Shown piece after piece: positions 43,424 to 62,791 of a stretch of DNA of 64,000 nucleotides. Position numbers and translations under genes: made by a program. Each line of letters begins with the position of its first letter. Within the stretch, counting starts at the first letter, position 1. The notes beneath the pieces were generated by a model that was not told the DNA's origin, did not search any database, and saw nothing but the letters and a program-made list of their open reading frames with translations. Source of the DNA: Corallococcus caeni (GTDB lineage: Bacteria > Myxococcota > Myxococcia > Myxococcales > Myxococcaceae). Location: contig NZ_BTTW01000008.1 of NCBI RefSeq assembly GCF_036245865.1, forward strand, positions 160,396 through 224,395. Reading direction: 5' to 3'.

Positions 43424-43589
43424 GCTTCGGGCGGCCGGGCAGGCTTGGGACGGGGGCTTGTCATTCCATGCGCCCTGCGCGGTGAGCAGGCAGGGGGGCA
43501 GGCAACGTCCCAGGGGAGGAAGCCGACCGGGGGATGGAATGCCCAATCTCCTCCGAGGAGGAGAAGGCATGGTCCTGCCCGGCAGGGGA

Positions 43590-45842: not shown

Positions 45843-45880
45843 GACGGTCGTGAAGGCTACCAGAGGCGGTTCACTTCGCG

Positions 45881-47098
45881 GTGACTGCGGCCAGGATGTA
45901 TCGGGGCAGCAGATCCTCACGGAACTTCCGCCAGACCCGCGGTGAACAGCACGACGAGGTCGAACTTCATGAGATCGGCGATCTGCTATTCATTCGTCTC
46001 GTGACATCCCACGTCGGCCAATACCAGCGCATCCGCCTGCTCGCCGAAGGCATCATCGAGGACCATCTGGCCAAGGCCGCTGGCCCGCAGGGCATCGAGA
46101 AGACGCTGGTGCTCCAGTGCCTCCGGCCGGACATGGCCGAGCAGATGGAGTTCCCGGAGCTGTTCCTCGACACGGCGAGGACCGCCGCCCGGCTCACGCA
46201 CCCGCACCTCGTGAAGGTCTTCGACTTCGGTGCGGCGGACGGCACGTACTTCCTAGCCAGGGAGCACGTCGATGGGATCAGCCTGAGCAGGTTGATCAAG
46301 CACCTGGCGGTCCAGCGGATGACCCTGCCGGCGACGCTGTGCGCGCGCATCATCTCGCAAGCCTGCGAGGGGCTCGCCTATGCCCACGACCTGACCCACC
46401 CCGAGACGCACGAGCCGCTGAGGCTCATCCACCGCTGCATCCGGCCGTACAACATCCTCCTGTCGCGTCAGGGGACGACCAAGGTGGTGGACTTCGGCAT
46501 CGACCATCTCCGGTCCCGGTGGACCCCCGAACACCCGCTCCCCGTCATGAGCAAGTACGTGTACATGGCGCCCGAGGAGATAAGGGGCGAGCGGGCAGAC
46601 CGGCGGGTCGACGTCTACGCGCTCGGAGTGGTGCTCTACGAGTTGCTCACCACGCGCAGGCCCTTTTCGTCCACGTCCGAATGGGATTTGCCTCGGGCCG
46701 TCATGTCCGAGCCCATGGTGCCCGCCGAGCAGCACCGCCCGGACCTGCCCGGAGTCCTGCGAGCCATCCTCGCCCGGGCGCTCGCGAAGGATCGGGACCA
46801 GCGCTACCCGGACTGCCAGGCGTTCCGGGAGGACCTGGAGCAGTTCATCCGCTCGGAGGGTGAGCCGGTGACACCGCGGCAGGTGGCCCAGCTCGTCCAG
46901 CAGATCACCGCGAGCGACGACCCAGCCGTCAGTGCTCCGGCTCCGGACGACCTGGAGACCCAGGCACGGCTCCGCTTGGGACGACGCTGGATCCTCGCGG
47001 CGGCCGTGGGCCTGGGGGTCCTGCTCGGAGGCGGCGCGCTGCTCTGGAAGATGAGCGCTGCGCCCGAGCCCGAGAAGGTCCGCGCTACTCCACCGTGA
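45881..47098 (+). CDS. Ser/Thr kinase-like protein, a predicted pseudokinase, with a C-terminal TM anchor
   Basis: The kinase fold has DFG and APE, but the catalytic loop reads HRCIRPYN instead of HRDLKPxN. No VAIK lysine is evident. A C-terminal helix (WILAAAVGLGVLLGGGALLW) follows. Confidence 0.55.
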   Translation: MTAARMYRGSRSSRNFRQTRGEQHDEVELHEIGDLLFIRLVTSHVGQYQRIRLLAEGIIEDHLAKAAGPQGIEKTLVLQCLRPDMAEQMEFPELFLDTARTAARLTHPHLVKVFDFGAADGTYFLAREHVDGISLSRLIKHLAVQRMTLPATLCARIISQACEGLAYAHDLTHPETHEPLRLIHRCIRPYNILLSRQGTTKVVDFGIDHLRSRWTPEHPLPVMSKYVYMAPEEIRGERADRRVDVYALGVVLYELLTTRRPFSSTSEWDLPRAVMSEPMVPAEQHRPDLPGVLRAILARALAKDRDQRYPDCQAFREDLEQFIRSEGEPVTPRQVAQLVQQITASDDPAVSAPAPDDLETQARLRLGRRWILAAAVGLGVLLGGGALLWKMSAAPEPEKVRATPP

Positions 47099-48536
47099 GC
47101 GGGAACAAGGCGGATGCCGGATGGCCCGTCACCGTGAGGACGCGAGGCTCCTCCTTGTCCTGCCACTGCCAGTATTTGGCCTGCGACTGCCACGAGCACG
47201 GCTCGACGGTGATGGTCAGCGGTCCTGAGCCCTCTCCCCGGGGCTTGAAGGTCACCTCCAGCTCCGCGGTGGCCTCTCCCTCCAGGCCGGCGGCAACCCC
47301 CACGAGATTCACGCGGTTCTCATCCACCATCGGGAGTGGCTGGCCGCGATACCGCACGCTCACGTCCACCACGCGAGCGCCGACGAGCGCCCCGGACACC
47401 CGGATCCGCACGGCCTCACACGAGGTCCCGTCATTGCGCACCACCGAACGCCACGTCTCGGTCACGGGCACGGACACGGTCAGCGGTCCCGAGGAGTGCT
47501 CGGTCCAGTGGAGCGCGGGCGTCTTGTAGCCCACGTGCATGAGCGGCGCGCCCGGGCTCACCGGCCGGTTCGAGGCGTGGAGGCGCAAGGGGGGGCCGGG
47601 CTCGGCGGTGAGCAGGAAGAGCGCGTCACTGTCCTCGGCGCCCACCCACCACCGGTCAGTCCCCGCGGGCGTCACGGACACGATGCGGGGCCACTCTCCC
47701 ACGAGTGTCTCCATCACCTGGAGCCCGGGCAGGGACACCAGGAGGGTCTTGTCCTGCACGAAGAGGAGCGCCCGGGACGCGTCGAGAACGCACACCCCGG
47801 CACCACCCCAGATCAGTTCATCCTCTTCATCGTCATCACCCTCTTGGTCCGGGATGGACCCGAGCAGGGTGCCGTCGAGCGCGAAGTGGAGGAGCGCCGT
47901 CTGCCGGTAGTTGATGACGAGCAGGAGAAGCACGCCCTGGGGAGTGGCTAGGGCCCGCCAGATGTCCTGCTCACCGCCCGGCTCCACCTGAAGCGCGCCC
48001 TCCGGCTGAGTCGCCCCCGGGCGGAGCACGTAGACGCGGCCTCGGCCTTTCTCGAGGACGGTGATGCCAAAGGGGCTCGAGTCGAGGAACGCCCCATCGG
48101 AAACCTGCCGGAGGGGGAGCCCCTCCGAGTATCCGTACCCGTGCGTGGCGTGCACGGGCTTGGGCAAGGTCATGGGCTCCCATCGCTGCCCGGACGCATC
48201 GGTCGCGAAGAGGGTGGTCAGCTTAAGGGCGCCGTCCACCACCGCTCCGACGAGCCGGTCCCCATCGGAGGTGAGATCGAAGCACTCCCTCGGAAAGGCC
48301 AGGACGGGAGCGCTCGCGCCGGCTCCTGCGGAGAAGACACGGCGATCCCCGTTTCCCACCCAGACGTCCTGTCCCTCATTGAGCGCGGCGAGCACCACGG
48401 GCGCGGACGGATGATCCACCACGTCTCCACTGGCCTCCCGGCGCACGCCTTCGGCTCCATGGAAGACGATGAGCCGCTGCGGTCTGAGATCAAACAACCA
48501 CGGTCCACGGGCCAGGAGGCGACGTCTCGGGTACAT
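47085..48536 (-). CDS. Hypothetical protein
   Basis: The 483-aa ORF has GC-rich third codon positions. It is convergent with the pseudokinase and overlaps it by 14 bp. Confidence 0.45.
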   Translation of the reverse strand: MYPRRRLLARGPWLFDLRPQRLIVFHGAEGVRREASGDVVDHPSAPVVLAALNEGQDVWVGNGDRRVFSAGAGASAPVLAFPRECFDLTSDGDRLVGAVVDGALKLTTLFATDASGQRWEPMTLPKPVHATHGYGYSEGLPLRQVSDGAFLDSSPFGITVLEKGRGRVYVLRPGATQPEGALQVEPGGEQDIWRALATPQGVLLLLVINYRQTALLHFALDGTLLGSIPDQEGDDDEEDELIWGGAGVCVLDASRALLFVQDKTLLVSLPGLQVMETLVGEWPRIVSVTPAGTDRWWVGAEDSDALFLLTAEPGPPLRLHASNRPVSPGAPLMHVGYKTPALHWTEHSSGPLTVSVPVTETWRSVVRNDGTSCEAVRIRVSGALVGARVVDVSVRYRGQPLPMVDENRVNLVGVAAGLEGEATAELEVTFKPRGEGSGPLTITVEPCSWQSQAKYWQWQDKEEPRVLTVTGHPASALFPLTVE

Positions 48537-48545
48537 GGGCCTGCA

Positions 48546-48659
48546 TCATACCCACGGACACCCGTCCCCCTGCGGCATCAAGTGTTCCACCTGCCGGTTG
48601 TACTCGGCGGCCACCTTGCTCCGAATGGAACTGGAGGAGGCGAACTTCATCTCGTTCAT
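48546..48659 (-). CDS. Candidate small peptide (37 aa) downstream of the radical SAM gene
   Basis: My hand translation of the minus strand gives MNEMKFASSSSIRSKVAAEYNRQVEHLMPQGDGCPWV. Third-position GC is about 80%. It is co-oriented with the radical SAM gene and has no obvious Shine-Dalgarno sequence. Confidence 0.25.
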   Translation of the reverse strand: MNEMKFASSSSIRSKVAAEYNRQVEHLMPQGDGCPWV

Positions 48660-48700
48660 GAGCGCGCGAGGCTGGATCAATTAACCGGTGATGCTCTTGC

Positions 48701-50068
48701 CTATGCCGAGGGTGACCACCAGCCGGAAGTGTCCGGAAGGGAGACCACCCGCTCCTCCAAGGCTTCGACACAATCCGGATGCCTGCCTTCAGTCTGGCGG
48801 AGTGCTTCCGCGAGCGCCTCCATCCGACTCCACTCCTGTTCTTTGAACGTGTGGCTGCGGATGACGCTTGGGATGGGGGCGTCATTCTCCTCCAGCCCCC
48901 ATCGTGCCCGCTCACGTTCCAGTTGGGTTCCCCGTAGCAACATGAGGGGAAACGCCTTGAGCACGGGCACTTGCCGACGGAGGCAGAAGTCGACCGTTTG
49001 TCGAAAGGACTCCAACGTCTGCTCGGGCAGCCCGAAGATGATGGAAACCTCGAAAGGGATGCCGCGCGCGTGGAGCTTGCGGACTCCTTCCACCACCTTC
49101 TCGAGATGATTCACGCGCTCCACGGCGCGTGCCTCCTTCTCGTGGATGGTCTGCAGGCCAAACTCAAGCCGGACCGCGAGCCCTTCGCAGGCGTCGAGGA
49201 ACTCATCATCCAACGTCGAGAAGTGGCACTGCAAAGACAGCCGTCCGCGATAGTCAAGCCGCTGGAAGGTTCGCAGCACCGCCAGCGCGTGATCCCCGAG
49301 ATTGAAGAGCGGATCCAGCACGGCGATGTCGTTCACTCCCGAGCGCACGAACAGCCCAATCTCTTCCTCAAGCCGAGCCATGGGGAGGTCACGGCGACGC
49401 AACCGGCTGCCGGCCTCCCGGTGCTGGCAGAACGAGCAGCGGAAGGGACACCCGCGCTGGGTTTCCCACCGGATGAACCGTTGCTCCCCTGAAAGTTCAA
49501 TCACGTCTTCGAGGAAGGGGGACGCAAGCGTCTCCAGCTTCGCCTGTGCTTGGACGCCAGCATCCAACTGGCCAGCCCAATGGACTCCTGGAAACCGGAT
49601 TCGATCGGACGTGGCGGCAATCGCCACCATGGCCTCTTCGCCATAACCCCGGACGAATCCATCCGCTTCAGGGTAGAGCTGCTCAAGGCCCGGTCCCGCG
49701 TAGGAGACCTGGGGCCCTCCGAGGATGATACGCCCCGCGAATCCGCTCCGACGCAGCGCCCCCAGAAGCTTCTTCACCACCCGGTCGTTCCACACGTAGA
49801 CGCCAAGGCCCAAGTCTACGTCCCGAGCCTCAAGTCCCCGTGCACCTTCAAGCACGCTCCACAGGATGTGCTCCTCACTGAAGTCAGAGCGATTGATGGC
49901 AAACGAGAACGCTCGCACGTCGACGTTCGCCTTTCGCAGTGCCGCGACGATGGAGGCATGTCCCAGGGGGAGGCGAGGGTCTTTGTCGCGCGTCCAATCA
50001 ATCGAGACCAGAATGACCCGCCGTGGCTGAGGTGGGACAGAAATGACCTCGGAGCTCCGACTGGACAT
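48701..50068 (-). CDS. B12-binding-domain radical SAM protein
   Basis: The 455-aa protein has an N-terminal B12-binding-like domain (RVILVSIDW...). It carries the CPFRCSFC (Cx3Cx2C) radical SAM cluster motif. Confidence 0.8.
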   Translation of the reverse strand: MSSRSSEVISVPPQPRRVILVSIDWTRDKDPRLPLGHASIVAALRKANVDVRAFSFAINRSDFSEEHILWSVLEGARGLEARDVDLGLGVYVWNDRVVKKLLGALRRSGFAGRIILGGPQVSYAGPGLEQLYPEADGFVRGYGEEAMVAIAATSDRIRFPGVHWAGQLDAGVQAQAKLETLASPFLEDVIELSGEQRFIRWETQRGCPFRCSFCQHREAGSRLRRRDLPMARLEEEIGLFVRSGVNDIAVLDPLFNLGDHALAVLRTFQRLDYRGRLSLQCHFSTLDDEFLDACEGLAVRLEFGLQTIHEKEARAVERVNHLEKVVEGVRKLHARGIPFEVSIIFGLPEQTLESFRQTVDFCLRRQVPVLKAFPLMLLRGTQLERERARWGLEENDAPIPSVIRSHTFKEQEWSRMEALAEALRQTEGRHPDCVEALEERVVSLPDTSGWWSPSA

Positions 50069-50256
50069 TTGCTCCCCCAGAAACGGCTCGCGTGGACTGT
50101 TCTGCGGTGCCGATGACTCCGCTCTCTCCGGACGAAAAGGGCCGCGGAAGATTCAACCGCAAGGAGAAGGGCTGGTGAGCCCTCTTATCCAAGTGGAGGA
50201 GATGGTTCTGACCGATTTCACTTCGCCTGTGCATCCCCCATGAGGAGTAGGAACCG

Positions 50257-50310
50257 GATACGAAAACGCCGCCCCACTTCCGATGGACCGGAAGTGGGCG
50301 GCGATGACAC
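50257..50310. repeat. Palindromic repeat element, copy Y (15-16 bp inverted repeat CGCCGCCCCACTTCCG/CGGAAGTGGGCGGCG)
   Basis: It lies downstream of the minus-strand lipoprotein gene. It is about 80% identical by eye to the element at 59708..59768. Confidence 0.55.
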
Positions 50311-50337
50311 TGCTTGGGACCTCGGCGCGGTGACCGG

Positions 50338-51018
50338 CTATTCGGCGTAGTAGGTGGTGACCTGGAAGGCCACGGACATCAACGCACTGGAACCCGTGAG
50401 CTCCACGACGCCACGGTCGATGTCGGAGCGGGTCATCTGGTACTGCGCCGACGCAATCGGGTCGTCGAAGATGGCGTCAACATCAATGACGGTGAACTGG
50501 ATGGGGGCCGAAAGCAGATCGGTACTGAGGACGTCGCATGAGCCCTTCGTCCAGGTGGGGGTGAAGCTCTCAACTTCCTCCGAAGGGGGGACGGCGGCTG
50601 GCGTGTTGGGGCACGACAGCTGAATCACGACATCCGGCGGCGAGCCATCAACGTCCCAGTCGCTGTTGTCAGCGGGATCCAGCGGCGCGATCTGCGCACG
50701 AAGGGGCTGGATCTTCGTGCGGATGGTGGGGGTGTAGCACTGCTGCTTGGAAGGGTGGCACATCATCCCGGTTGTGCACTTGGAGCAGGTGCTGCCGTTA
50801 GGACCGCATGCGTCGGCGGTGCGAGTCATGACGCACTTGTTGGTGGTTGGGTCGCAGCAGCCTTCACAGCTCTCCGCAGTACAAAGCTCGGTGAGCGGAG
50901 GCGGGTCATCCGTGATGGGGTCGGGGCCGCCTGGGCTGAGGTCCTCGGGCCCACATGCGGCAAGCAACAAGAAGGACGCCAAGCCAAGGCAAGTAAGGAT
51001 TCGATGGGTGATTTTCAT
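50338..51018 (-). CDS. Cys-rich lipoprotein (paralogue B)
   Basis: The 226-aa protein has the lipobox LLLAACG. It shares CxxGCC, a DWDxDGSPPDVV block and C-terminal similarity with the 45222..45842 product. Confidence 0.65.
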   Translation of the reverse strand: MKITHRILTCLGLASFLLLAACGPEDLSPGGPDPITDDPPPLTELCTAESCEGCCDPTTNKCVMTRTADACGPNGSTCSKCTTGMMCHPSKQQCYTPTIRTKIQPLRAQIAPLDPADNSDWDVDGSPPDVVIQLSCPNTPAAVPPSEEVESFTPTWTKGSCDVLSTDLLSAPIQFTVIDVDAIFDDPIASAQYQMTRSDIDRGVVELTGSSALMSVAFQVTTYYAE

Positions 51019-51024
51019 TGTCTT

Positions 51025-52782
51025 TTAGTTGAGTTGAAGCACGAGAACGCGGGTACTTTTGTCCATCCGCACTTCGGCCGTTGACATCCTGATCACAGGA
51101 ACGCTCGCAACCTGGGTGCGCCGTCCTCCTGGCGTGGCCGCGAGAACGATGGGCGCGGGGGTTGTAGATGCGAGCGCAGTGACGGTTTGAGGTTCGGCAT
51201 AGCCAACGAGGAAGAGTTCGCCAGTGGCTCGTACACGGTGAACCTCGATTCCGTCTGGCAGGTTCCCGTAGGTCGGAGTGTTGGCGTTGTAGGTTGGAAT
51301 CGAATCCATCCGAAGGAAGGCGTAGCGACCTCTCGGAAGCTGAGCGATCCGCGATCCTCGCTCGGATTCTGACGCAGGCACGACCTGGTGCTGCTGGCGC
51401 ACAGCCCTGATCTGTGTACCTGGAGCCATGGGCACGAAAGCGGAAGGTGGCTGCTCGATGGGACGCACATCCGTCATTGGTGGTGATCCCTTGCCGCTTT
51501 CAGGTCGCTGCGAGACCACGGCAATCCCCCCTGCGATCACCCCTCCCGCGATGACGACCGCGAGCCGACTGGAGCCCGAGCGACTCGGTGTAGCAGGCGG
51601 TGCTGGGACTTGGATGACAGGAGAGACCGTGATGACTGGAGAGACCGTGACAGTCGCGGTGCTCGGCGCTGGCGTTGAGCCAGCCGGCACGGATGGCGCG
51701 GGCTCAGGAGGTTTCGGGGGGCTGTGCGACGTCGGCGCAGTCTGCACCGTGGCGTTGGCGCTTGCGTCGGATCGTGTGGAGGGTGGCGGTGTCGGTTGGC
51801 CCGCGGTTCGAGGGTACGAGAGCTGGGCGCTGGCCGCGCCAAATTGTTTCCGCAGGTCGGGGAAGAACTTGTGGCAGTCGATTCCGCCATAGCAGCGAAG
51901 CCCCTTGCTACCTCTCAGATTGGCGACCCTGCTGAAGAGATTTGGATTGCGGGCCTCAATCACGGCGTCTTCTTCTCCGTAGAACCCCCAGAGGATGTCG
52001 ACGTCCTTGTGTCGATCGACGTCAATGGTTGCGAGGGTCTGGGTGAAGACGTCATCCCACCCGCCGTACCCGATCACGACCAGCGTGTGGTCTTGAAGAA
52101 TCTGGATCAACTCCGCGGAGACGTGTCTGCGCTCGCGACCAAGCTGGATACCCGTGTGTAACGTAGGCGAACGGTGCCAGTAGCCGTGAAGATGGATGAT
52201 GTGTGTGGATTTGGATGAGGCAGGGACTGTCTGCCCAAACGGGATGTCACTGGCCACGATGGTGCGATGGAAATCGCCACCGGCCACCTTCACCGATGCC
52301 GAGATGAGGGGATCAAAGTTCGTGGTCAAGACAGGACCAAACGTCTCAGCTCTTTCCACCAGCAATCTACCGAGGTGCTCCGTCGCGGGCGGCAAGGCCC
52401 ATCCGCCATGGTCCAGATCCAACTGGTCGTCAGTCGCCGCTCCATCGCGTTTGCGGTCCACCCGTGCGCGAAGCACCGCCTCTCGAACAACCCTCTCGGA
52501 GACATCCTTATCGCAATGGCCTTGTACGAAGCGCATGGCCCATTGGTATTTGTTTTCTTTGGTGTACTCGCGCTCCGTGTCGAATTTCGCTTGGAATCCG
52601 GCCGGAACGTGCTCGCGGATGAGATCCAGCATTGCATTCACCCCAGGAACCTGAGGGGCGTCAGCTCGTTCCTGCGTCGACAAGGGAGAGCCCACTAGAA
52701 ACGCGATTTTCCGGTTTTTAGAGGCAGCGATGACAGCGTTTGGGAGCGCATCCTTCGGATGCAGGAACGGGTAGGAACTCAT
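51025..52782 (-). CDS. SIR2-like (SIR2_2 family) protein with a Pro/Thr-rich linker, one TM helix and a C-terminal domain of unknown function
   Basis: The N-terminal roughly 300 aa carry KIAFLVGSPLS (Rossmann), TTNFDPLI (catalytic Asn) and IIHLHGYWH (catalytic His). A TM helix (LAVVIAGGVIAGGIAVV) and a roughly 150-aa C-terminal domain follow. GC content is lower than in the surrounding DNA. Confidence 0.75.
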   Translation of the reverse strand: MSSYPFLHPKDALPNAVIAASKNRKIAFLVGSPLSTQERADAPQVPGVNAMLDLIREHVPAGFQAKFDTEREYTKENKYQWAMRFVQGHCDKDVSERVVREAVLRARVDRKRDGAATDDQLDLDHGGWALPPATEHLGRLLVERAETFGPVLTTNFDPLISASVKVAGGDFHRTIVASDIPFGQTVPASSKSTHIIHLHGYWHRSPTLHTGIQLGRERRHVSAELIQILQDHTLVVIGYGGWDDVFTQTLATIDVDRHKDVDILWGFYGEEDAVIEARNPNLFSRVANLRGSKGLRCYGGIDCHKFFPDLRKQFGAASAQLSYPRTAGQPTPPPSTRSDASANATVQTAPTSHSPPKPPEPAPSVPAGSTPAPSTATVTVSPVITVSPVIQVPAPPATPSRSGSSRLAVVIAGGVIAGGIAVVSQRPESGKGSPPMTDVRPIEQPPSAFVPMAPGTQIRAVRQQHQVVPASESERGSRIAQLPRGRYAFLRMDSIPTYNANTPTYGNLPDGIEVHRVRATGELFLVGYAEPQTVTALASTTPAPIVLAATPGGRRTQVASVPVIRMSTAEVRMDKSTRVLVLQLN

Positions 52783-52822
52783 CGGGAGACGAACGCTATC
52801 AGAAGCGCAGGCGGGTTCGAGT

Positions 52823-54388
52823 TCAGGCGGCCCGCTCGCGTTGACCGCCCTGTTCCTCCTCTTGGAGCGCCAAGGTCTTACGGTACTCCGCCGCCTCCGC
52901 GAGCTGGGTCAGCTCGAACTCCCCGTGGTGCTTGCGCACGGCCTGGGCGATCTCATCCAAGCTGACGCGGAAGAACTCCTTGCGCTCATTGATGCGGTTG
53001 ACGCGCCTGTTCGCGAACGTCCTGTGGAGTGCGTTCTCCAGGGCCGGGGCGTCCGAGGTCCGGATGATGGCGTGGACATCGAACTCGAAGGGCACGGATG
53101 CATCCCCCAGCTCGTCGATGCGGTCCTGGGGCACGAGCCTCCTCGTCATTCCCAGCTTGAACACACCTTCCCCAAACGAGCCGATGTTGGAGATGACGTA
53201 GACGTGCCCCGTCCGCGTGAGCTGGGCCTGGGAGATGGCTCGCTGCTTCTCCAGGTCTTCGGCCACGCGGCGCTCCAGCTCGGCGATGCGTTCCAGCAAC
53301 TTCTGCTGCTCGGAGCCCTTTGCCCGATCGTAGTCCGCCTTCGCCTTCGCCAGGGCCTCGGCGTCACGCTTCGACTCGCGCTCCGCCTCCAGCTTCGCCT
53401 TCTCCAGCTCGCGCTGGGCGGCCTCCTCCTCTCGCATCTGCTCCCGGATGCGGCGCTGTTCGTCCCGCTCCTGTTGCACCTTCTCCGAGTACTCATACGC
53501 GAGCATCAGCTCCTCGACCTTGAGCTTGACGTAGCGCCTGTCGATGACACACCGCTGTATCTCCACAAGGCCATTTATGGCGGCAGCTGCCTTCTCGATG
53601 CGCGTCTCCATTGCCTTCACGTTCTTGTACGAAACCTTCGCGACACACGCATCCGCTTCGCCATTGAAGGCCCGGAGCATCAGCTTCAAGGTACGGTCCG
53701 TCTGCTTCTTGCCCTCCGCCTTGCTGCCATTGACCTCCCACTGGAGAGAGCACGTGGCGGCTTCCTTGTTCTTCAGCATCTGTTTCTGAGAATCGCGGAG
53801 CCTCTCCAGGCGGTCCTCGTATTCCTTCACGGACGAGAGGGCGTACACCGGCTTGTAGAAGCCAAAGGAGAGCAGGACCTCCTCTTCCTCAAGGGCCTTC
53901 AGCTCGGCCTTCAACCGGGCGAGGCTTGACTCCAGGCTGGTTCGCTCGGTGTTCGCCTGCTTTCGCCGCGCTTCCGCCTCCTCCATGGCGCGTGTCGCGC
54001 TCTGGGTCGTCTTCGCCGTCTCTTCACGGATCCGGCTCAGCTCCGCCTTCGCCCGGCTCTGTTCGGCCGCGATGGCTTGCTCCACGTCCGCCTTGGCCCG
54101 GGCCAGCTGGGTTTCCACCCGCTTCTGCTCCGCCGCCAGCGCGTTGTCCGCCTCGCTCCTGGCTTTCGCCAACTCTTCACGGACCCGCTTCTGCTCCGCG
54201 GCAAGCGCAGCGTCCGCGTCCGTGCGCGCCCGCGTCAACTCCTCGGCCACCCGCCGCCGTTCGGCCTCCAGGTCCAGGATGGGCTTGAAGCGCTCCTGGA
54301 CGGCCTTGAGCCGACTTCGTGTCTGGAACCACAACCCGAGGAGCAACAGACTCAATACGCCCAGTCCAACGGCAATCATCGTGGTCAT
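52823..54388 (-). CDS. DUF4041-like coiled-coil protein with a C-terminal T5orf172 (GIY-YIG-like, MUG113) domain and an N-terminal TM helix
   Basis: The start is the internal ATG (MTTMIAVGLGVLSLLLLGLWF) of track ORF 52823..54496, preceded by AGGAGA. It has 22-aa coiled-coil repeats. The C-terminus reads GHVYVISN...FKLGMTRR...DRIDEL...PFEFDVHAII...LHRTFANRRVN...EFF. Confidence 0.8.
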   Translation of the reverse strand: MTTMIAVGLGVLSLLLLGLWFQTRSRLKAVQERFKPILDLEAERRRVAEELTRARTDADAALAAEQKRVREELAKARSEADNALAAEQKRVETQLARAKADVEQAIAAEQSRAKAELSRIREETAKTTQSATRAMEEAEARRKQANTERTSLESSLARLKAELKALEEEEVLLSFGFYKPVYALSSVKEYEDRLERLRDSQKQMLKNKEAATCSLQWEVNGSKAEGKKQTDRTLKLMLRAFNGEADACVAKVSYKNVKAMETRIEKAAAAINGLVEIQRCVIDRRYVKLKVEELMLAYEYSEKVQQERDEQRRIREQMREEEAAQRELEKAKLEAERESKRDAEALAKAKADYDRAKGSEQQKLLERIAELERRVAEDLEKQRAISQAQLTRTGHVYVISNIGSFGEGVFKLGMTRRLVPQDRIDELGDASVPFEFDVHAIIRTSDAPALENALHRTFANRRVNRINERKEFFRVSLDEIAQAVRKHHGEFELTQLAEAAEYRKTLALQEEEQGGQRERAA

Positions 54389-54401
54389 GGTTGTCTCCTG
54401 T

Positions 54402-57400
54402 TCAGGCGCTGGCGGCGCGCATCTGGTTCTCCGCCGCGGGCTCCTCGCGCACCACGGCCGGCAGCTCCGCCGCCTCTTCCCGAAGCACCTCTTCAACGTG
54501 CGCGACGATCCGGGCGACCTCTTCCGATGGCGAGCGGAACCAGTCCGTGGACCAGATGCGGTGCAGCCTCCATCCCAGGCCCTTCAGCACCTGATCCCGG
54601 AGGCGGTCCCGGTCCCGGGCGGAACGTGACGAGTGATACCTCTCTCCGTCACACTCGACGCCAAGGACGTAACGGCCCGCTTGCCGAGGATGCCGCAGGG
54701 CCATGTCGATGAAATAACCCGCGACGCCCACCTGCGGGACCACTTCGAATCCCCGCGCGACGAGCGCCTTCGCGACGGCAATCTCGAAGTCGGAGTCGGG
54801 TGGCCGACCGCTGCCCACGCCGTGCGCCACCTTCTCTCCCTTGGCTTCGGACAGGTATCGCTGCAGGACGCGCATCCCGCGGGGACTGCTTTCCTGGACC
54901 TTGAGCTCCGACGGGTCGAAGGACGCGAACACCGTCAGCGCGCACCGCGCCCGCGTGAAGAGGACGTTCAGCCGGCGGTACCCGTCCGCTTGATTGATGG
55001 GCCCGAAGTTCATCCGGAAGCGCTCGTTCTTGTCGGGACCGAACGTGACCGACACGAAGATGGCGTCGCGCTCGTCGCCCTGGACGTTCTCCAGGTTCTT
55101 CACGTCGAAGGGCATGGGGGACTTCTCCCACTTCGCCAGGAAGGCCCGGAGGGCCGCGTCGTTCTTCTCCTCGGCAGTCACCAGGTCGTCGATGAGCTCT
55201 CGCTGCTTCGAGTTCAACGTGACGACCAGCAGGCTCTGCTCCGGGCGCGTACGCGCATGCGCCTTCACCGCCGCCAGCACCTCGCGGGCCTCGGGAACGT
55301 TCCGGTTGGACTCGTACAATCCCTGCTCCACGCGGTGGAAGTGGAGGCCCAGCCCGTCCAACTGCTCGCCGGGCGCGGGGAAGGTGATGAGGTCGCCGTT
55401 GTAGAACTCGCGGTTGCTGAAGGCGATGAGCGAGGGGTGGCGGGACCGGTAATGCCAACGCAACATGCGCATGGGAAACCGCTCCGCCGCCGCCGTGAGG
55501 ATGCTCTCCGAATCCTCCAGGAAGGACGGCCCCTGGACCTCGTCTCCCTCCGCGCCCTCGGTGTCGGCGTCCTCCTGCTCCACCTGCGCGAAGAAGCTGG
55601 TGGGAGGAAGCTGCTCCGGGTCGCCCACCACCACCAGTTGCCGACCTCGGGCAATGGCTCCCAGCGCGTCCTCGGGACGCATCTGGCTGGCCTCGTCCAT
55701 CACGACCAGGTCGAAGGTCAGCTGCCCGGCGGGCAGGTATTGGGCGACGGACTGCGGCCCCATCATGAAGCAGGGCATCAACGTCTGGAGTGCACTGCCG
55801 GCGCGTGCCACCAGCTCGCGAATGGGGAGGTGCCGCTGCTTCTTGCCCAGCTCGTGCCGCAGGAGATGCGTCTCCGTCATGCCCGCAACCTTTGCCGACG
55901 ACACGCCGGGAGGGACCGGACGCTGACTGAGTTGACGCGCCAGGTATCGGCCCTGCTTTTCGATGCAATGCGTGTCCAGGCGGGCGAACTCCTCACGCTG
56001 GGAGGCGTGAACCGCGCCCGTGAATTGATCGAGCTCCGGCTGGTCTCGCAGGATGGCTTCCGCCAGGGAGCGGAAGAAGACGGCGTCAAAGGCCGCGACC
56101 AACTGCTCCGGCTCCAGGCCGGGACGGGTGTCGACGCGCTCCAGGAACCCCAGGGTGCTCCGCGCTCGCGCGACGGCGCGCCGCTGCCGTTGGTACGCGC
56201 ACCAGGCCGGGAGCGTCGCGGACTGGCTTCGAGCCTGGCGCAGGCGCATGACCGTCGCCTGGAGCGGCTTCTCGGCGGCGGGTTCCTCCCAGGTGCCGGG
56301 CGCCATCCTTCCCAGCTCCCAGGCCTGATTGGCGGACTGGCTATAGGCGGTGAGCGCTACCTCCACGTCATGCGTGGCGGTGAGCAGGTCCGCGTGCCTC
56401 CGTGGCGTGTCCTTCCTCAGCAGCCACTCCGCCAGCCCCTCGGGCAGTGGCGCCGCGAAGAGGACGTCGACATGGCGCAGGGCGCTTCGAGGGCCCGCGA
56501 GGGACGTCTTCCGACCCCGGTATGCGATCCCTGGCAAGCCCGCCGCCGGGGCATGCGCTTCCAGCCGGTTCTCGGCTTCGCAGGCCTCGCGCACCCGGCG
56601 CAGCTGTCCCTGGAGCTGGGAAAGGGTCAAGGACGGCAGGGCATCTCCCTTTCGTGCCCAGTTCAGGACCTCACCCAGGTGTTTCAACAAGGCATCGAGG
56701 CTGTCCTGGGCCTTGCCGCAGGGTTCGGTGTTCCAGGGGGCGTGCGGCAGACCCATGCGCGTCGCGGCTTCCTGCACGGTAGTGCTCACGTCGCGGGCCT
56801 GGAGCAACTCGTCACCCCACACGCGGGTCTTCGCCAGGGCCTCCTGCCAATGGCTCGCCGGCCGCTCCAACACCGCGCGGCGGAGTTCCGCCCCTCGCTC
56901 TCCCAGCGAAAGGAGCAATGCATCGACGTTCCGGTAGGCGTCCACCCACGAAAGAATCCGGTCGAAACGCGTATCGACTCCCTGGAAGCGGGCGCCCAGG
57001 GTCGCTTTCAAGGTCGCGTCCTCGTGGAATCGCTCCCGCGCCGCGTGGTGCGCCAGCAGGTCGGTGTAACCCTGGAGCAACACGGGCCGCGTCGGACGGA
57101 CGCCGTGGGACATGGCCTGGAAGTCCCGCCTCGCCGCACGCCATGCACCCGAGAGCCAGGGGATGAAGGGCGCGGTCGAAACCGCGACGGCATGTGCCTT
57201 GAGCGTCGTGAGCGGAGGAACGAGTTCGGGCATGAAGCGCACCGCGAGCGCTCGCGCCTGGTCCTTCAGCTCCGAGCAGGTGCTGCCGGCCTTCCGAAGC
57301 AACTCCTCGGCCTCGCGCTCGACCCAACGCGCGTCCCGCCACTCCAGGGCGGCGTCATCCAGGACCGCCATCGCTTCGACGACGCGGACAAACGTCTGGA

Positions 57401-59606
57401 GCTGCTGCGGCGTCCAGAGCGTGACGTCCACCTCCAGGCATGAGGCCACTGCAGCCATGAACCGGCGTCCCTGTGCCAGGGCCCGGGCTGCTGCATCCAC
57501 CGCTTCATGCGCGCGTGTCAGCGTGATGAGCGTGGTGTCTGGCGAAAGCAGGCGCAGGGCCGTGTCGAGGATGGCTTGCGCGTCACGCACGGTGGGTACG
57601 GTCAGGTCCTCCTGGGCACGCCAGCCCGCCTCCAGCCCCGCCCACCGCGCCTGGACCGACTCGATGGCATCGAGCAGGGCGCGCAATCCCTCGCGCTGCG
57701 TGGCATCAAGCAGGGTAGGGATCAGCTCCGGAGGAGCCCCCTCCGGAAGGCGTGGAAGGACCCGGACGTTTGAGACCAGGGCATCCGCCGCGAGCGCGCT
57801 CGACCTGGGGGTGATGCCAGTTCGGACTGTGAACGCAGCCAGCGCCTTCTCCAGGAGCAGCGTGGACTCTTCCCAGGCCGCGATCCGTTGAACGAGTGTC
57901 TGGCGGTCCTTGTCCGTCAGCGCGTCGTTCGTCACCCCCGCAAAGGGGTGGGCGCAGAGGACGGGAGCGACGCGGCGAACGTCCCCCAACTGCGCAGCGA
58001 GGCCCCGAACCGTGTCGCGGACCTCCGCCAGCGCAGTGGAGGACATGCTCTCCGCGCCCTCGAAGCGCAGGCCCTCCAACTCGACGACTGCTTCTCCCAG
58101 CTCCGCTTCAGTGCGACTGACCTTCCAGAACACGTCGTGCGGTGACATGCCGAGCGCCCCGAATGGCTTGTGCATCCGCTCGGTATGCGCGCGCAGGATG
58201 CCCGCGGCGCTCGAGACCTGTTCGGTGAGCGGCCGGGGAGCGCTCGCGCCTGCGTCCAGGTTGAGCCTTCGCCGCAGGTCCTCCATGAACTGCTGCTTCT
58301 GGGTCTTGTGGCTGTGCAGCTCCAGGCAGAACTCACCCAGCCCCGCCTGCTGGAGGCGGCGTGAGACGACCTCCAGCGCCGCCAGCTTCTGCGTGACGAA
58401 CAGCACGGTCTTGCCCGCCGCCAGCGCAGCTCCGATGAGGTTGGTGATGGTCTGTGACTTCCCGGTGCCGGGCGGTCCCTGCACCACCAGGTTCTCACCC
58501 CGGAGCACGTCCACCAGCACGCTGTGCTGACTGCTGTCCGCGTCCGTGATGAGGGGTGGAGGATTCAGCTCCGGCGAGTCCAGGTCATAGACCTCGCTTC
58601 GGCGTTCCCGGAGGCCGCCTCCGCCTCCTGCGCCTCCTCCCGGTTCATTCGCCTGCGCCTGTCCTCCCATCAGCGTGCGAACGAGCGGGTTGGCCAGCGG
58701 GGAACCGTTCTGCGGCCATCGGGTTGGCTCCAGGTCCCGCCACATCAGGAGCCGCCCGAAGGACAGCAGCGTCAGCGTGACCTGCCGCTCCAGCCCCCAT
58801 CCGGGGCGCAGGCCCTTGAGCAGCGCCGTCACCTTGTCGAAGTACGCCTCCAGGCCTTCCTCGGCGGAGAAGGCCGGCAGCGCGATGCCGAACTCCTGCC
58901 TCAGCTTCTCCTGGAGCGTGAGGTTCAGCTCGATGGACTCGCCTTCGTTGTAGTCGACCTCGTAAGCGTGGACCTGGGTGTCCGGGTGGGCCTGGCCGCG
59001 CTTGAGGCTCACCGGCATGAGCACGAGCGGTGCGCTGCGCGGCTTCTCCTGCCGGGTATCACCAGACTCGTACCAGCGCAGGAACCCGAAGACGAAGTGG
59101 AGCAGGTTGGCTCCGGTCTCCTGGATGGCTGTCTGCGCGAGCCCCTGGAGGCGGTGCAGGTGGCCCTCCAGATCCTCCGGGAAGTACAACGTCTGCAGGT
59201 GGCGGTCCTGATGCTTGCGAGGAGGGGTGCCGCTCTCCGTGGGGGCCGCCTTGGGCAGCTCATACCGGGTGTCGATGCCCAGGCGCTTCGCCTGTTGAAG
59301 CAGCAGCTTCTGCCGGGCGTCCTTGCTGGGGACCTCCTCGGTCATCGAGAACACCACGGTCGCGGCGGCGGGGTCGAAGTCCTCCTGTTCCTCGGAGTCC
59401 TGCTCCGGTGGCGTCACCGGGAGGAACGTGAGCGCGCGGTGGTTGCTCAGCCGCTCGAAGACGACACCTGGAAGTTCATCCACGATTCGCAGCGACGTCC
59501 TGGCCGTGTGCTTGAAGTGGAGGAGCCGGTTGGTTGCGCTCAAATCCAGCAACCGGTTGCGTTGCCGCTGAAGCTCTTTCAGCATGACCGAGTCGTGCGG
59601 AGTCAT
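54402..59606 (-). CDS. Giant DUF4011-family SF1 (Upf1-like) helicase with a C-terminal DUF559 / PD-(D/E)xK endonuclease-like domain
   Basis: The 1734-aa protein has the N-terminal DUF4011 signature LxxLxxRLLDLSATNRLLHFK, Walker A VQGPPGTGKSQTI, motif II VVMDEASQM and motif VVVGDPEQLPP. The C-terminus (ECDGERYHSS...DRDRLRDQVLKGLGWRLHRIW) is Vsr/DUF559-like. Confidence 0.85.
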   Translation of the reverse strand: MTPHDSVMLKELQRQRNRLLDLSATNRLLHFKHTARTSLRIVDELPGVVFERLSNHRALTFLPVTPPEQDSEEQEDFDPAAATVVFSMTEEVPSKDARQKLLLQQAKRLGIDTRYELPKAAPTESGTPPRKHQDRHLQTLYFPEDLEGHLHRLQGLAQTAIQETGANLLHFVFGFLRWYESGDTRQEKPRSAPLVLMPVSLKRGQAHPDTQVHAYEVDYNEGESIELNLTLQEKLRQEFGIALPAFSAEEGLEAYFDKVTALLKGLRPGWGLERQVTLTLLSFGRLLMWRDLEPTRWPQNGSPLANPLVRTLMGGQAQANEPGGGAGGGGGLRERRSEVYDLDSPELNPPPLITDADSSQHSVLVDVLRGENLVVQGPPGTGKSQTITNLIGAALAAGKTVLFVTQKLAALEVVSRRLQQAGLGEFCLELHSHKTQKQQFMEDLRRRLNLDAGASAPRPLTEQVSSAAGILRAHTERMHKPFGALGMSPHDVFWKVSRTEAELGEAVVELEGLRFEGAESMSSTALAEVRDTVRGLAAQLGDVRRVAPVLCAHPFAGVTNDALTDKDRQTLVQRIAAWEESTLLLEKALAAFTVRTGITPRSSALAADALVSNVRVLPRLPEGAPPELIPTLLDATQREGLRALLDAIESVQARWAGLEAGWRAQEDLTVPTVRDAQAILDTALRLLSPDTTLITLTRAHEAVDAAARALAQGRRFMAAVASCLEVDVTLWTPQQLQTFVRVVEAMAVLDDAALEWRDARWVEREAEELLRKAGSTCSELKDQARALAVRFMPELVPPLTTLKAHAVAVSTAPFIPWLSGAWRAARRDFQAMSHGVRPTRPVLLQGYTDLLAHHAARERFHEDATLKATLGARFQGVDTRFDRILSWVDAYRNVDALLLSLGERGAELRRAVLERPASHWQEALAKTRVWGDELLQARDVSTTVQEAATRMGLPHAPWNTEPCGKAQDSLDALLKHLGEVLNWARKGDALPSLTLSQLQGQLRRVREACEAENRLEAHAPAAGLPGIAYRGRKTSLAGPRSALRHVDVLFAAPLPEGLAEWLLRKDTPRRHADLLTATHDVEVALTAYSQSANQAWELGRMAPGTWEEPAAEKPLQATVMRLRQARSQSATLPAWCAYQRQRRAVARARSTLGFLERVDTRPGLEPEQLVAAFDAVFFRSLAEAILRDQPELDQFTGAVHASQREEFARLDTHCIEKQGRYLARQLSQRPVPPGVSSAKVAGMTETHLLRHELGKKQRHLPIRELVARAGSALQTLMPCFMMGPQSVAQYLPAGQLTFDLVVMDEASQMRPEDALGAIARGRQLVVVGDPEQLPPTSFFAQVEQEDADTEGAEGDEVQGPSFLEDSESILTAAAERFPMRMLRWHYRSRHPSLIAFSNREFYNGDLITFPAPGEQLDGLGLHFHRVEQGLYESNRNVPEAREVLAAVKAHARTRPEQSLLVVTLNSKQRELIDDLVTAEEKNDAALRAFLAKWEKSPMPFDVKNLENVQGDERDAIFVSVTFGPDKNERFRMNFGPINQADGYRRLNVLFTRARCALTVFASFDPSELKVQESSPRGMRVLQRYLSEAKGEKVAHGVGSGRPPDSDFEIAVAKALVARGFEVVPQVGVAGYFIDMALRHPRQAGRYVLGVECDGERYHSSRSARDRDRLRDQVLKGLGWRLHRIWSTDWFRSPSEEVARIVAHVEEVLREEAAELPAVVREEPAAENQMRAASA

Positions 59607-59787: not shown

Positions 59788-61386
59788 CTACCGGCGCTTC
59801 TGCGCCGCGTCCGCGTGCTTCTCCATGAACTCCGAATACGGGCCGTTGAAGTCGAGCACTTCCTTGCCCTGCTCCAGGCTCCAGATGCGGGTCGCGACCT
59901 CGGAGATGAGCTCCTGGTCGTGCGTCACGCAGATGACCGTGCCTTCGAACTTCGACAGGCCTTCCGCCAGCGCCGCGATGGACTCCAGGTCCAGGTGGTT
60001 CGTCGGCTCGTCGAGAATCAGCACGTTGTCCTGCATGATCATCAGCTTGGACAACAGCACGCGCACCGTCTCACCACCGGAGAGCGTGTCCGTGGGCTTC
60101 ATCCGCTCCTCACCCGAGAAGAGCATCCGGCCCAGCACGCCGGAGATCTCCTCGTTGGTCAGCTTCTCGCTGATCTCCCGGAGGTAGCCGAAGCACGTCG
60201 TGCCCTTGTGGATGACGCCGTGGTGGTCCTGCGGCAGGTAGCCCACCGTCGCCTGGTGACCCCAGGTGATGGTGCCCGCGTCCGGCTCCAGCTGCCCCGC
60301 CAGCATCTTCACCAGCGTGGACTTGCCCACCGCGTTGCGGCCGATGACGCAGATGCGCTCGCCCTTGCAGACCAGCCCCTTGAACGGCTTGATGACCGGC
60401 ACCCCGTCGAAGGACTTCTTCAGGCCCTCGAACATCAGCGTCTGCCGGCCGCTGACCACCTTCTGGTCGAACCGGATGAACGGCCGCGCGATGTTCGAGC
60501 GCTTCAGGTCCTCCGTCTTCAGCTTGTCGATCTGCTTGATGCGGCTCTGCACCTGCGACGCGCGCGTACCCGCGTGGAAGCGCGCCACGAAGTCCTGCAG
60601 CTGGGCGATCTTCTTCTTCTTCTCCGCCGTCTCGGACTCCACCCGGGTCCGCAGCTGCGACTTCTGCCGGACCATGTCGTCGTAACCACCCGTGTACTGG
60701 ATGATGGTCTCGTAATCGATGTCCGCGATGTGCGTGCAGATGGAGTTCAGGAAGTGCCGGTCGTGGCTGATGGTGATCAGCACGCCCTCGTAGGCATGGA
60801 GGAAGTTCTCCAGCCAGCGGATGGAGTCGATGTCCAGGTTGTTCGTGGGCTCGTCCAACAGCAGCCCTTCCGGCTTGCCGAACAGCGCCTGCGCGAGCAA
60901 CACGCGCAGCTTCAGGCCGCCGGTGAGCTGGCGCATGGGCTCTTCGTGGAAGGACTCCTCGATGCCAAGGCCCGCCAGCAGCGTGGCCGCGTCGCTCTCC
61001 GCGGAATAGCCGTCCTCCTCCGCGATGACGCCTTCCAGCTCACCCAGCCGGTTGCCGTCCTCTTCCGTGATGTCGGCCTTGGCCAGGAGCTTGTTCTTCT
61101 CGTCCATGGCCGCCCACAGGTGGCGGTTGCCCATCAGCACCACGTCGATGACGCGGTCGTTCTCGTAGCGGAAGTGGTCCTGGCGCAGGATGCCCAGCTT
61201 CCGCGGGCGGATGATCTCGCCCATGTCCTGCTCCTCGTCACCCGCGAGGATCTTCATGAACGTGGACTTGCCGGCCCCGTTCGGACCGGTCAGGCCGTAG
61301 CGACGGCCCGGCGAGAAGGCGACGTTGACCTCCTCGAAAAGTTTCTTGGGCCCGTAGGCCTTGGAGACGTTGATGACGTTGAACAT
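59788..61386 (-). CDS. ABC-F family ATPase (two ABC domains, EttA/YbiT-like)
   Basis: The start is the internal ATG (MFNVINVSKAYG) of track ORF 59788..61803. It has two sets of Walker A/B and LSGG signature motifs (GPNGAGKST, GRNAVGKST). Confidence 0.85.
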   Translation of the reverse strand: MFNVINVSKAYGPKKLFEEVNVAFSPGRRYGLTGPNGAGKSTFMKILAGDEEQDMGEIIRPRKLGILRQDHFRYENDRVIDVVLMGNRHLWAAMDEKNKLLAKADITEEDGNRLGELEGVIAEEDGYSAESDAATLLAGLGIEESFHEEPMRQLTGGLKLRVLLAQALFGKPEGLLLDEPTNNLDIDSIRWLENFLHAYEGVLITISHDRHFLNSICTHIADIDYETIIQYTGGYDDMVRQKSQLRTRVESETAEKKKKIAQLQDFVARFHAGTRASQVQSRIKQIDKLKTEDLKRSNIARPFIRFDQKVVSGRQTLMFEGLKKSFDGVPVIKPFKGLVCKGERICVIGRNAVGKSTLVKMLAGQLEPDAGTITWGHQATVGYLPQDHHGVIHKGTTCFGYLREISEKLTNEEISGVLGRMLFSGEERMKPTDTLSGGETVRVLLSKLMIMQDNVLILDEPTNHLDLESIAALAEGLSKFEGTVICVTHDQELISEVATRIWSLEQGKEVLDFNGPYSEFMEKHADAAQKRR

Positions 61387-61612
61387 GGCGGCGGCTTGTA
61401 ACGGAAATGGCGCGGCGACCCAAGACGCGCGGTGAATCGTGTACCGGAGGACCCAATGTAACCGCCGCCACGCCCCGGAAATGCCGGCTTCCGACCCCGC
61501 CCCTGGGGGCCGGGTAGGGAAAACGGAGCCTTCCCTGGGAGGAACGGCCTCCCGGGGACCAGGCAGGCGTCCCCAGGAAGCGGGTGCCCTCGGACGGGCA
61601 GGCTGGGTATAA

Positions 61613-62791
<1,179 letters not shown>

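Follow-up and report, generated by a model that had tools for sequence, protein, structure and literature searches.

A membrane SIR2 protein and its neighbouring lipoprotein as a candidate two-gene module in a probable defence island of Corallococcus caeni

Do three closely spaced genes of Corallococcus caeni, which encode a giant helicase-nuclease, a membrane-anchored nuclease, and a membrane SIR2 protein, form one undescribed defence system, as a first-pass annotation of the sequence had proposed, or are they independent modules that happen to be neighbours? We addressed this question in a window of 64,000 bp from contig NZ_BTTW01000008.1 (the whole stretch of DNA analysed here), in which three minus-strand open reading frames (ORFs) occupy positions 51025-59606. 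They encode an Hhe-like protein of 1734 amino acids (aa) (gene 1, 54402-59606), a homologue of SNIPE, or PD-lambda-1, of 521 aa from its ATG (gene 2, 52823-54388), and a 585 aa protein in which a SIR2 domain is followed by a predicted transmembrane (TM) helix and a C-terminal domain (CTD) (gene 3, 51025-52782). The intergenic gaps are 13 bp (Hhe/SNIPE) and 40 bp (SNIPE/SIR2); the ORF coordinates confirmed the annotated genes, their sizes, their strand, and their spacing, and all of the annotated domain calls were borne out by Pfam (DUF4011, AAA_11/AAA_12, MTES_1575 with a weak DUF559, DUF4041, T5orf172, and SIR2_2). A fourth co-oriented gene, which the annotation had overlooked, starts 6 bp 3' of the SIR2 gene and encodes a lipoprotein of 226 aa (50338-51018, minus strand). 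Our results suggest that the region from 45.2 to 59.6 kb is probably a chromosomal defence island in which independent modules are stacked, one of them a candidate undescribed two-gene system consisting of the SIR2-TM-CTD protein and this lipoprotein. The annotated view of a horizontally influenced defence locus was upheld, as was the statement that the membrane SIR2 is not a described system; its unit is the SIR2-TM-CTD gene together with the lipoprotein gene, which extends beyond the segment that had been annotated.

One genome per species was scanned with a profile of the SIR2 protein, which yielded 80 loci, and all window proteins were then compared with these loci by tblastn. The gene order Tgt/ABC-F/Hhe/SNIPE/SIR2/lipoprotein/.../lipo2/BrkB/RmlC/RmlD was found in C. 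coralloides, C. sicarius, and C. praedator, and the same order was present in part on a short contig of C. interemptor. Between these species, amino acid identity was 95-97% for ABC-F, 85-91% for SNIPE, 69-89% for Hhe, 54-78% for the lipoprotein, and 48-67% for the SIR2 protein. The window lipoprotein shares 98% identity with one from C. caeni, in agreement with a Corallococcus origin of the window. The Corallococcus trio is one syntenic site in one genus, and for this reason its conservation counts as a single evolutionary event. No Hhe or SNIPE homologue was detected by tblastn in the 76 other loci with SIR2-domain relatives. Plasmid records with homologues were numerous in tblastn searches (201 for SNIPE and 539 for Hhe), and four contexts of Hhe or SNIPE homologues were inspected: a Hymenobacter plasmid, where the homologue lies beside Qat genes, a lambdoid region of E. 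coli, a Vibrio plasmid, and a Ralstonia megaplasmid. The other two trio genes were absent from the vicinity in all four. A metagenome scan with the SNIPE protein gave two loci only, one of them on a 4.8 kb contig, and was of no help for the question of adjacency.

Published work, in which hhe and SNIPE each function as a single gene, points in the same direction as the separateness seen in the plasmid contexts. A three-gene system was rejected because the trio was adjacent at the one Corallococcus site only and because PADLOC and NCBIfam place genes 1 and 2 in single-gene families. Naming the trio a novel system, as the annotation had done, would therefore be an error, since two of its genes belong to published single-gene defences; close spacing combined with within-genus synteny can mimic an operon-encoded system. 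In PADLOC, gene 1 matched PDC-S37 and Hhe, gene 2 matched PD-Lambda-1, and gene 3 matched in its SIR2 core only.

The partner of the SIR2 gene was found on its other side. When the last 145 residues of gene 3 were compared exhaustively with 1.84 billion representatives by phmmer, only 19 clusters of CTD relatives were returned; a word-indexed homologue search with a CTD profile gave one protein, probably because columns from the low-complexity linker dominated the choice of words, and brought to light the Myxococcus hansupus remnant described below. The CTD was always C-terminal, and all 15 full-length CTD proteins have a strongly hydrophobic 19-mer that precedes it by 25-71 residues. The N-terminal part differed from protein to protein (P and L numbers denote our proteins and loci, respectively). 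It was a SIR2 domain in P0132, P0134, and P0138; a PNP_UDP_1 nucleosidase domain in P0135, P0136, and P0140, the last with an added EAD5 adaptor; a TIR domain in P0137; and a Rossmann/FAD domain in P0139 and P0144, while P0130, P0131, and P0141 consist of TM-CTD without an effector. In PADLOC, the PNP domain matched the CBASS "PN-superfamily" effector and PDC-M60C, the TIR domain matched the PDC-S66, ThsB, and Argonaute-associated TIR models, and the Rossmann/FAD proteins matched the Lamassu effector LmuA at E = 9e-91.

A lipoprotein homologue lay directly 3' of the CTD gene in 14 of 15 informative loci, across five N-terminal states (SIR2, PNP, TIR, LmuA-like, and none). The count refers to distinct loci; L100 ends too early to be informative, and the contig carrying P0136 stops right after the gene. 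The lipoprotein gene was found downstream of PNP (L091 and L094), TIR (L090), LmuA-like (L093 and L099), and effector-less (L095) versions of the CTD gene; that of L090 is cut by the contig end, with its signal peptide, lipobox LASGC, and Cys motif still visible. Pairs of SIR2-TM-CTD protein and lipoprotein at 31-33% SIR2 identity were also present outside Corallococcus (L006, L081/L082, and L083) in loci without Hhe and SNIPE, and the L006 pair lies at a chromosomal site other than the Corallococcus one. Hhe and SNIPE were absent from all nine CTD-bearing loci outside Corallococcus, in which the TM-CTD was fused to SIR2, TIR, PNP, LmuA-type, or no effector and the lipoprotein was the constant element. 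We conclude that the TM-CTD and the lipoprotein stay constant, that the N-terminal effector-type domain is interchangeable, and that the real partner of the SIR2 gene is the downstream lipoprotein gene and not Hhe or SNIPE. A constant sensor with a swapped effector is a typical pattern of conflict systems, and the SIR2-TM-CTD protein with its lipoprotein looks like a candidate undescribed two-gene module of the effector-TM-sensor type.

A decayed relative of the SIR2 gene was found in Myxococcus hansupus (CP012109.1, L098 7703-8498), where a 165 aa ORF comprising the CTD only (P0147) and a short N-terminal SIR2 fragment remain. This remnant has no TM helix and no lipoprotein and occupies the same genomic context as the intact pair in L006. 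The L006 record (BNCN01000021.1, "Comamonas sp. KCTC 72670") shares its gene order with M. hansupus (FAD-binding protein, SBP-SLT, Lactamase_B_2, ..., peptide deformylase), and its organism label may be wrong or the assembly contaminated. In both L093 (1-7939) and L099 (1-5810), the LmuA-like-TM-CTD gene is preceded by the same block, which encodes a very large TPR protein (about 3180 aa), a second protein of about 205 aa, a QueC-like protein, and Peptidase_M15; this block may be a further linked module.

The predicted organization of gene 3 was as follows, all on the minus strand. Residues 1-318 (51829-52782) form a SIR2 domain of the SIR2_2 family, recognized by Pfam (E = 1.4e-7), AlphaFold2, and Foldseek. 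Residues 319-406 (51565-51828) form a Pro/Ser/Thr-rich low-complexity linker with low predicted local distance difference test (pLDDT) scores and poor conservation. A TM helix, LAVVIAGGVIAGGIAVVSQ, is predicted at residues 407-425 (51508-51564), where the Kyte-Doolittle mean is 2.08 and which is the sole segment above 1.6, and residues 453-585 (51028-51426) form the CTD, an alpha+beta domain in the AlphaFold2 model. The annotated order of SIR2 domain, TM helix, and extra C-terminal domain was thus recovered, with a confidently modelled CTD, and the catalytic Asn and His described as intact proved to be invariant: N155 (in TTNFD), D157, and H199 (in HLHG) were identical in 14 homologues. In a PDB profile search, the TTNFD and HLHG motifs aligned with those of human FAM118B, the only solved sequence relative. 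The AlphaFold2 model of gene 3 was built on a 14-sequence alignment; the SIR2 domain was modelled with confidence (pLDDT mostly 80-94), and pLDDT was below 50 over residues 319-452, a disordered Pro/Ser/Thr-rich stretch that includes the TM segment. When modelled separately, the CTD reached a pLDDT of 87 and a predicted template modelling score of 0.80. No fold relative of the CTD model was found in the PDB, and Foldseek gave no match at E <= 0.001 among BFVD viral structures. In PADLOC, neither the CTD nor the stand-alone TM-CTD proteins were matched by a model, and the same was true of all of the lipoproteins.

We then asked how gene 3 compares with known SIR2-effector systems. The 50 PDB matches listed by Foldseek for its SIR2 domain were defence NADases, namely the SPARSA SIR2, SIR2-HerA, KomC, DSR2, and ThsA (E = 2e-10 to 5e-7), and the nearest sequence relatives outside the TM-CTD family were the N-terminal SIR2 domains of NB-ARC/TPR (STAND) proteins. 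PADLOC matches on gene 3 were confined to the SIR2 core (residues 143-271). No SLOG domain, DSR2-type C-terminal sensor, HerA, APAZ/pAgo, or STAND NTPase was found in gene 3 or in the five other genes scanned (47085-59606), and a below-threshold match to DUF87, the HerA central domain, fell on the coiled-coil region of the SNIPE homologue. Gene 3 therefore shares the SIR2_2 fold and the motif Asn and His with Thoeris ThsA, DSR1/DSR2, SIR2-HerA, SPARSA, KomC, and SIR2-STAND/Avs-type systems, and by analogy NAD+ depletion would be expected as its output too; in contrast to these systems, it does not have their defining partner modules and has instead a single TM helix, a CTD of unmatched fold, and a dedicated lipoprotein gene. 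Judged by its domain content, gene 3 belongs to none of Thoeris, DSR, SIR2-HerA, SIR2-pAgo, and SIR2-STAND.

The window lipoprotein has a signal peptide, the lipobox LLAAC, a Pro-rich tether, a 10-Cys module, and a C-terminal C2-like domain with an acidic cluster. Throughout the family, the Cys that ends the signal peptide is invariant, 10 further Cys are conserved (nine of them invariant), and the C-terminal domain contains invariant acidic residues. The window protein itself gave no match in PADLOC, Pfam, or NCBIfam. Three of 14 family members matched Pfam C2 (best E = 2.9e-4), and the top PDB profile matches of the family were the C2 domains of Piccolo and PKC-beta (E = 0.02-0.05).

Gene 2 matched PADLOC PD-Lambda-1 at E = 6.9e-155, with residues 92-516 aligned to positions 52-479 of the 496-position profile. 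Its DUF4041 domain (PF13250) was matched by Pfam over the whole profile (E = 9.3e-21), and its C-terminal GIY-YIG nuclease domain was matched by T5orf172 (8.4e-18) and MUG113 (1.6e-17). The TM anchor that had been predicted was recovered as a hydrophobic helix near the N terminus (residues 3-21, with a Kyte-Doolittle mean of 2.23), and a coiled-coil region separates it from DUF4041. PD-lambda-1 has been renamed SNIPE; the protein is elongated and has a TM helix in its N-terminal part, DUF4041 in its centre, and a GIY-YIG nuclease at its C terminus; in E. coli it acts as a single-gene inner-membrane nuclease that cuts phage DNA during injection, the TM helix is present in 59% of homologues, the N-terminal regions are the variable part of the family, and an E414A substitution abolishes defence (PMC13190303). 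Gene 2 shows this three-part layout in identical order (TM helix, DUF4041, and GIY-YIG/T5orf172) and has an aligned Glu, its E451 corresponding to E414 of the E. coli homologue, whose numbering may differ from that of the published protein. It differs in its identity of about 45% to the E. coli DUF4041 protein and in having a longer, divergent coiled-coil region at its N terminus. The frame is open upstream to a TTG at 54496, a start that would overlap the Hhe 3' end by 95 bp; alignments with homologues start at residue 3 when counted from the ATG, which favours the ATG at 54388. From its sequence, gene 2 is a SNIPE homologue and would constitute an independent single-gene module, in which an inner-membrane-anchored GIY-YIG nuclease would act alone.

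Gene 1 carries DUF4011 (PF13195; E = 1.8e-33, residues 18-235), an SF1 Upf1-like helicase core (AAA_11, 1.7e-15; AAA_12, 3e-14), and a C-terminal Vsr-like nuclease (MTES_1575 REase, 1.3e-36, residues 1607-1703; DUF559, weak at 0.0026), all matched in Pfam, and its translation shows a Walker A motif (GPPGTGKS) and a DEAS box (VVMDEAS). The fusion of the helicase to DUF559 had been regarded as unusual; it is, however, the architecture of hhe, a single-gene defence with helicase and nuclease domains (PMC11482910). Gene 1 aligned end to end with the NCBIfam Hhe family (NF042953), residues 12-1727 covering positions 2-1703 of 1797 at 1398 bits, with ProA as the second-best NCBIfam family at 1121 bits. 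Its best PADLOC single-gene models were PDC-S37 (1243 bits) and Hhe (923 bits), and no paper defining the names "ProA" or "PDC-S37" was found in the literature searched. Because the NCBIfam score lies below the equivalog cut-off (1398 versus 2000 bits) and PDC-S37 outscores the PADLOC Hhe model, gene 1 is filed, on these profile scores, as Hhe-like and not as an Hhe equivalog. It thus shares the full architecture of hhe (DUF4011, AAA_11/AAA_12 SF1 helicase, and C-terminal MTES_1575/DUF559 nuclease) and differs in its sub-cut-off score, its identity of about 38% to plasmid genes that the Prokaryotic Genome Annotation Pipeline calls hhe, and its best PADLOC model; unlike those plasmid-borne genes, it is chromosomal and syntenic throughout the genus. 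Like its hhe relatives, the Hhe-like protein would work alone.

How might the SIR2 protein and the lipoprotein work together? We propose that the CTD is a sensor or a partner-binding domain, and it is predicted to lie outside the cytoplasm. A periplasmic position is favoured because the N-terminal effectors lack a signal peptide and have their nucleotide targets in the cytoplasm, because there is one TM helix, and because the partner is exported. Counts of Lys plus Arg around the TM helix of all CTD proteins (45 on the N side versus 29 on the C side) gave modest support for this orientation. The SIR2 domain would then be cytoplasmic, and the periplasmic CTD would contact the exported, probably outer-membrane-tethered, Cys-rich C2-like lipoprotein to form an envelope sensor. 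If this complex were disturbed, as might happen when a phage adsorbs or injects its genome, the signal would pass through the single TM helix, probably by a change of oligomeric state, and would switch on the SIR2 NADase, so that NAD+ depletion aborts the infection. Rather tentatively, and with doubt still outweighing confidence, the family might be a class of outside-in immune receptors of bacteria that has so far gone undescribed, in which an extracytoplasmic sensor with a lipoprotein co-receptor is linked through one TM helix to swappable cytoplasmic death effectors and detects phage attack, or another insult to the envelope, ahead of genome entry or during it.

To our knowledge, almost all characterized abortive-infection effectors of the SIR2, TIR, and PNP types act under cytoplasmic sensors, and the sensor arrangement of the pair appears to be unprecedented, making it a candidate variant of effector-based defence. 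Envelope-associated sensors are found in other defence systems, such as ZorAB of Zorya and KwaA of Kiwa. With these the pair may share a logic, in which a membrane component detects an envelope event and elicits a cytoplasmic response; the likeness is conceptual, there being no sequence or fold relation, and neither system is known to include a lipoprotein. The TIR-TM-CTD protein P0137 may likewise be compared with Toll-like receptors, which have a similar layout (sensor outside, one TM helix, and TIR inside), although the domain order of P0137 is reversed, with the effector N-terminal, and no sequence or fold relation exists. Full-text searches, in which literature coverage was incomplete so that their silence is weak evidence, returned no account of a system in which a SIR2, TIR, or PNP effector is combined with a TM helix, a domain outside the cytoplasm, and a lipoprotein. 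"System 4" of Kaur et al., a membrane system of two genes, was considered as a prior description and rejected, as its components (EACC1 and caspase) differ. If the topology proposed here is true, the pair would offer a simple two-gene model of transmembrane signalling in bacterial immunity, one in which effectors are exchangeable and the sensor remains constant.

The pair is read as a defence module because of its setting in the island, its fast evolution, its atypical G+C content at third codon positions (GC3), its patchy distribution, and the decayed remnant in M. hansupus. In the island it is placed between two anti-phage genes and the PADLOC candidate PDC-M51A. The G+C content was 60.7% for the SIR2 gene, 64.4% for SNIPE, 68.0% for Hhe, and 69.6% for the whole window; the two downstream genes are therefore lower than the window, as had been annotated, and the value of SNIPE is higher than the 55-60% given there. 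The contrast was clearer in GC3, which was 0.67 for SIR2, 0.79 for the lipoprotein, 0.85 for Hhe, and 0.86 for SNIPE, versus 0.95-0.98 for the flanking ABC-F and Tgt genes.

Several observations weigh against this interpretation of the island and the pair. The block from Hhe to the lipoprotein is kept intact in four Corallococcus species with gaps of only 13, 40, and 6 bp, and the four plasmid contexts inspected are a small sample. No terminator-like sites were seen between the four genes, so that Hhe, SNIPE, SIR2, and the lipoprotein may share a transcript; in a scan for promoters and terminators, promoter-like sites were absent and terminator-like sites were scarcer than in shuffled sequence, a result that the high-GC genome makes uninformative. 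For the proposed topology, Lys plus Arg around the TM helix of the window protein itself number 2 on the N side versus 3 on the C side, the stand-alone TM-CTD proteins P0130 and P0131 have positive charges after the helix, and the TM helix of gene 3 was modelled by AlphaFold2 at low confidence. For the partnership, no lipoprotein adjoins the CTD protein P0141 (L096/L097), the sole exception among the 15 informative loci, the lipobox is poorly matched in several homologues, and the C2 assignment, although consistent, is weak (E from about 3e-4 to 0.05). For the anti-phage role, the CTD family is rare and seems to be limited to Myxococcota, in which conflict systems of other types are common as well. 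Polymorphic-toxin cassettes lie directly beside the effector-TM-CTD and lipoprotein genes of two loci, namely an Imm11-AHH-Imm11 cassette at L099 9030-13032 and Imm52 at L091 10569-11336, and hint at a broader conflict island.

These points have to be set against three other explanations. Hhe, SNIPE, the membrane SIR2 protein, and possibly the lipoprotein could be one integrated system, in which the nucleases would sense or process phage DNA and SIR2 would be the NAD+-depleting effector. The tight spacing, the shared orientation, the absence of intergenic terminator-like sites, and the gene order kept in C. coralloides, C. sicarius, C. praedator, and partly C. interemptor agree with such a system, as does the membrane location shared by SNIPE and the SIR2 protein. 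Synteny at one site in one genus is, however, one evolutionary event; Hhe and SNIPE are missing from the nine non-Corallococcus CTD loci and from the 76 SIR2-domain loci, and their homologues occur in the four plasmid contexts without SIR2 or each other nearby. In addition, hhe (PMC11482910) and PD-lambda-1/SNIPE (PMC13190303) have each been published as a single-gene defence, and the unequal divergence of SNIPE (85-91%), Hhe (69-89%), and SIR2 (48-67%) does not suggest a co-adapted complex. We regard an integrated system as quite improbable. Less probable still, and hardly credible in our judgement, is that the SIR2 protein is a membrane-anchored housekeeping or regulatory deacylase with the lipoprotein as an unrelated neighbour. 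The SIR2 superfamily does include protein deacetylases, and the Pfam SIR2_2 match is modest (1.4e-7). In contrast, the domain falls in the SIR2_2 clade, its nearest structures among the matches listed are defence NADases, and its nearest sequences are SIR2-STAND fusions; the same TM-CTD also carries TIR, PNP, and LmuA-type domains, which would make no sense for a deacylase, the adjacency of the lipoprotein persists through effector swapping, and the SIR2 gene is fast-evolving, patchy, and decayed in M. hansupus.

More serious, but in our estimate still unlikely, is the explanation that the effector-TM-CTD protein and the lipoprotein do form a real module that serves myxobacterial social conflict instead of anti-phage defence, with the NADase as a suicide or growth-arrest output. 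The cues would be, for example, toxins or non-kin lipoproteins received by outer-membrane exchange, predators or prey, or developmental programmed cell death. Cys-rich modules such as that of the lipoprotein are typical of myxobacterial secreted proteins, the CTD family is seemingly confined to Myxococcota-like genomes, an extracytoplasmic sensor would suit an extracellular or contact-dependent cue, and Imm52 and Imm11-AHH-Imm11 genes adjoin two of the loci. The P0140 variant, moreover, has EAD5, which was described as an adaptor in the conflict systems of multicellular bacteria (PMC7159879). On the other hand, the Corallococcus pair lies among anti-phage genes and beside a PADLOC candidate, all four swapped N-terminal domains match PADLOC anti-phage domains, and phage adsorption and injection are likewise envelope events; the observations are compatible with either trigger. 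The reading of the pair as an anti-phage module within an island of independent modules is retained as the more probable one.

The island site is fixed in Corallococcus, with ABC-F and Tgt on one side and BrkB and rhamnose-synthesis genes on the other. In the window, the conserved flanks are the ABC-F ATPase (59788-61401, minus strand) and Tgt (61622-62791, plus strand), both assigned by NCBIfam, and, on the opposite side, BrkB (43458-44630, plus strand), assigned by a library match. What lies between the two lipoprotein paralogues differs from locus to locus: the window contains a radical SAM gene, a 483 aa ORF, and a kinase gene, L003 and L004 contain nothing, and L001 contains about 4 kb of other sequence. 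The B12-binding radical SAM gene (48701-50068, minus strand; Pfam Radical_SAM and B12-binding) matched the PADLOC multi-gene candidate PDC-M51A at E = 1.3e-151, and no PDC-M51 partner genes were recognizable near it. It follows the lipoprotein gene in C. interemptor (L002), is missing from L001, L003, and L004, and lies outside the conserved SIR2/lipoprotein pair. The DUF4011 helicase and the radical SAM gene bracket the SNIPE gene and the SIR2 pair. The 483 aa ORF (47085-48536, minus strand) matched nothing in Pfam, PADLOC, or NCBIfam and has no homologue in the related Corallococcus loci. The Ser/Thr protein kinase gene (45881-47098, plus strand; Pfam Pkinase, 2.3e-27) matched the PADLOC PD-T4-6 kinase models at 8e-57; these models are generic, so that the match is a lead only. 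Ser/Thr kinases are very numerous in myxobacteria, and the similarity of the window kinase to PD-T4-6 may be generic.

The second lipoprotein gene, lipo2 (45222-45920, minus strand), encodes a paralogue with 38% identity to the first lipoprotein and a Pfam C2 match at 2.9e-4. The variable region has its far edge at this gene, which comes before BrkB in the gene order of all loci compared. Copies were present in every Corallococcus locus that extends far enough (L001 16446-17081, L003 12521-13141, and L004 11422-12054); lipo2 has no CTD gene of its own and follows directly after the first lipoprotein gene in L003 and L004.

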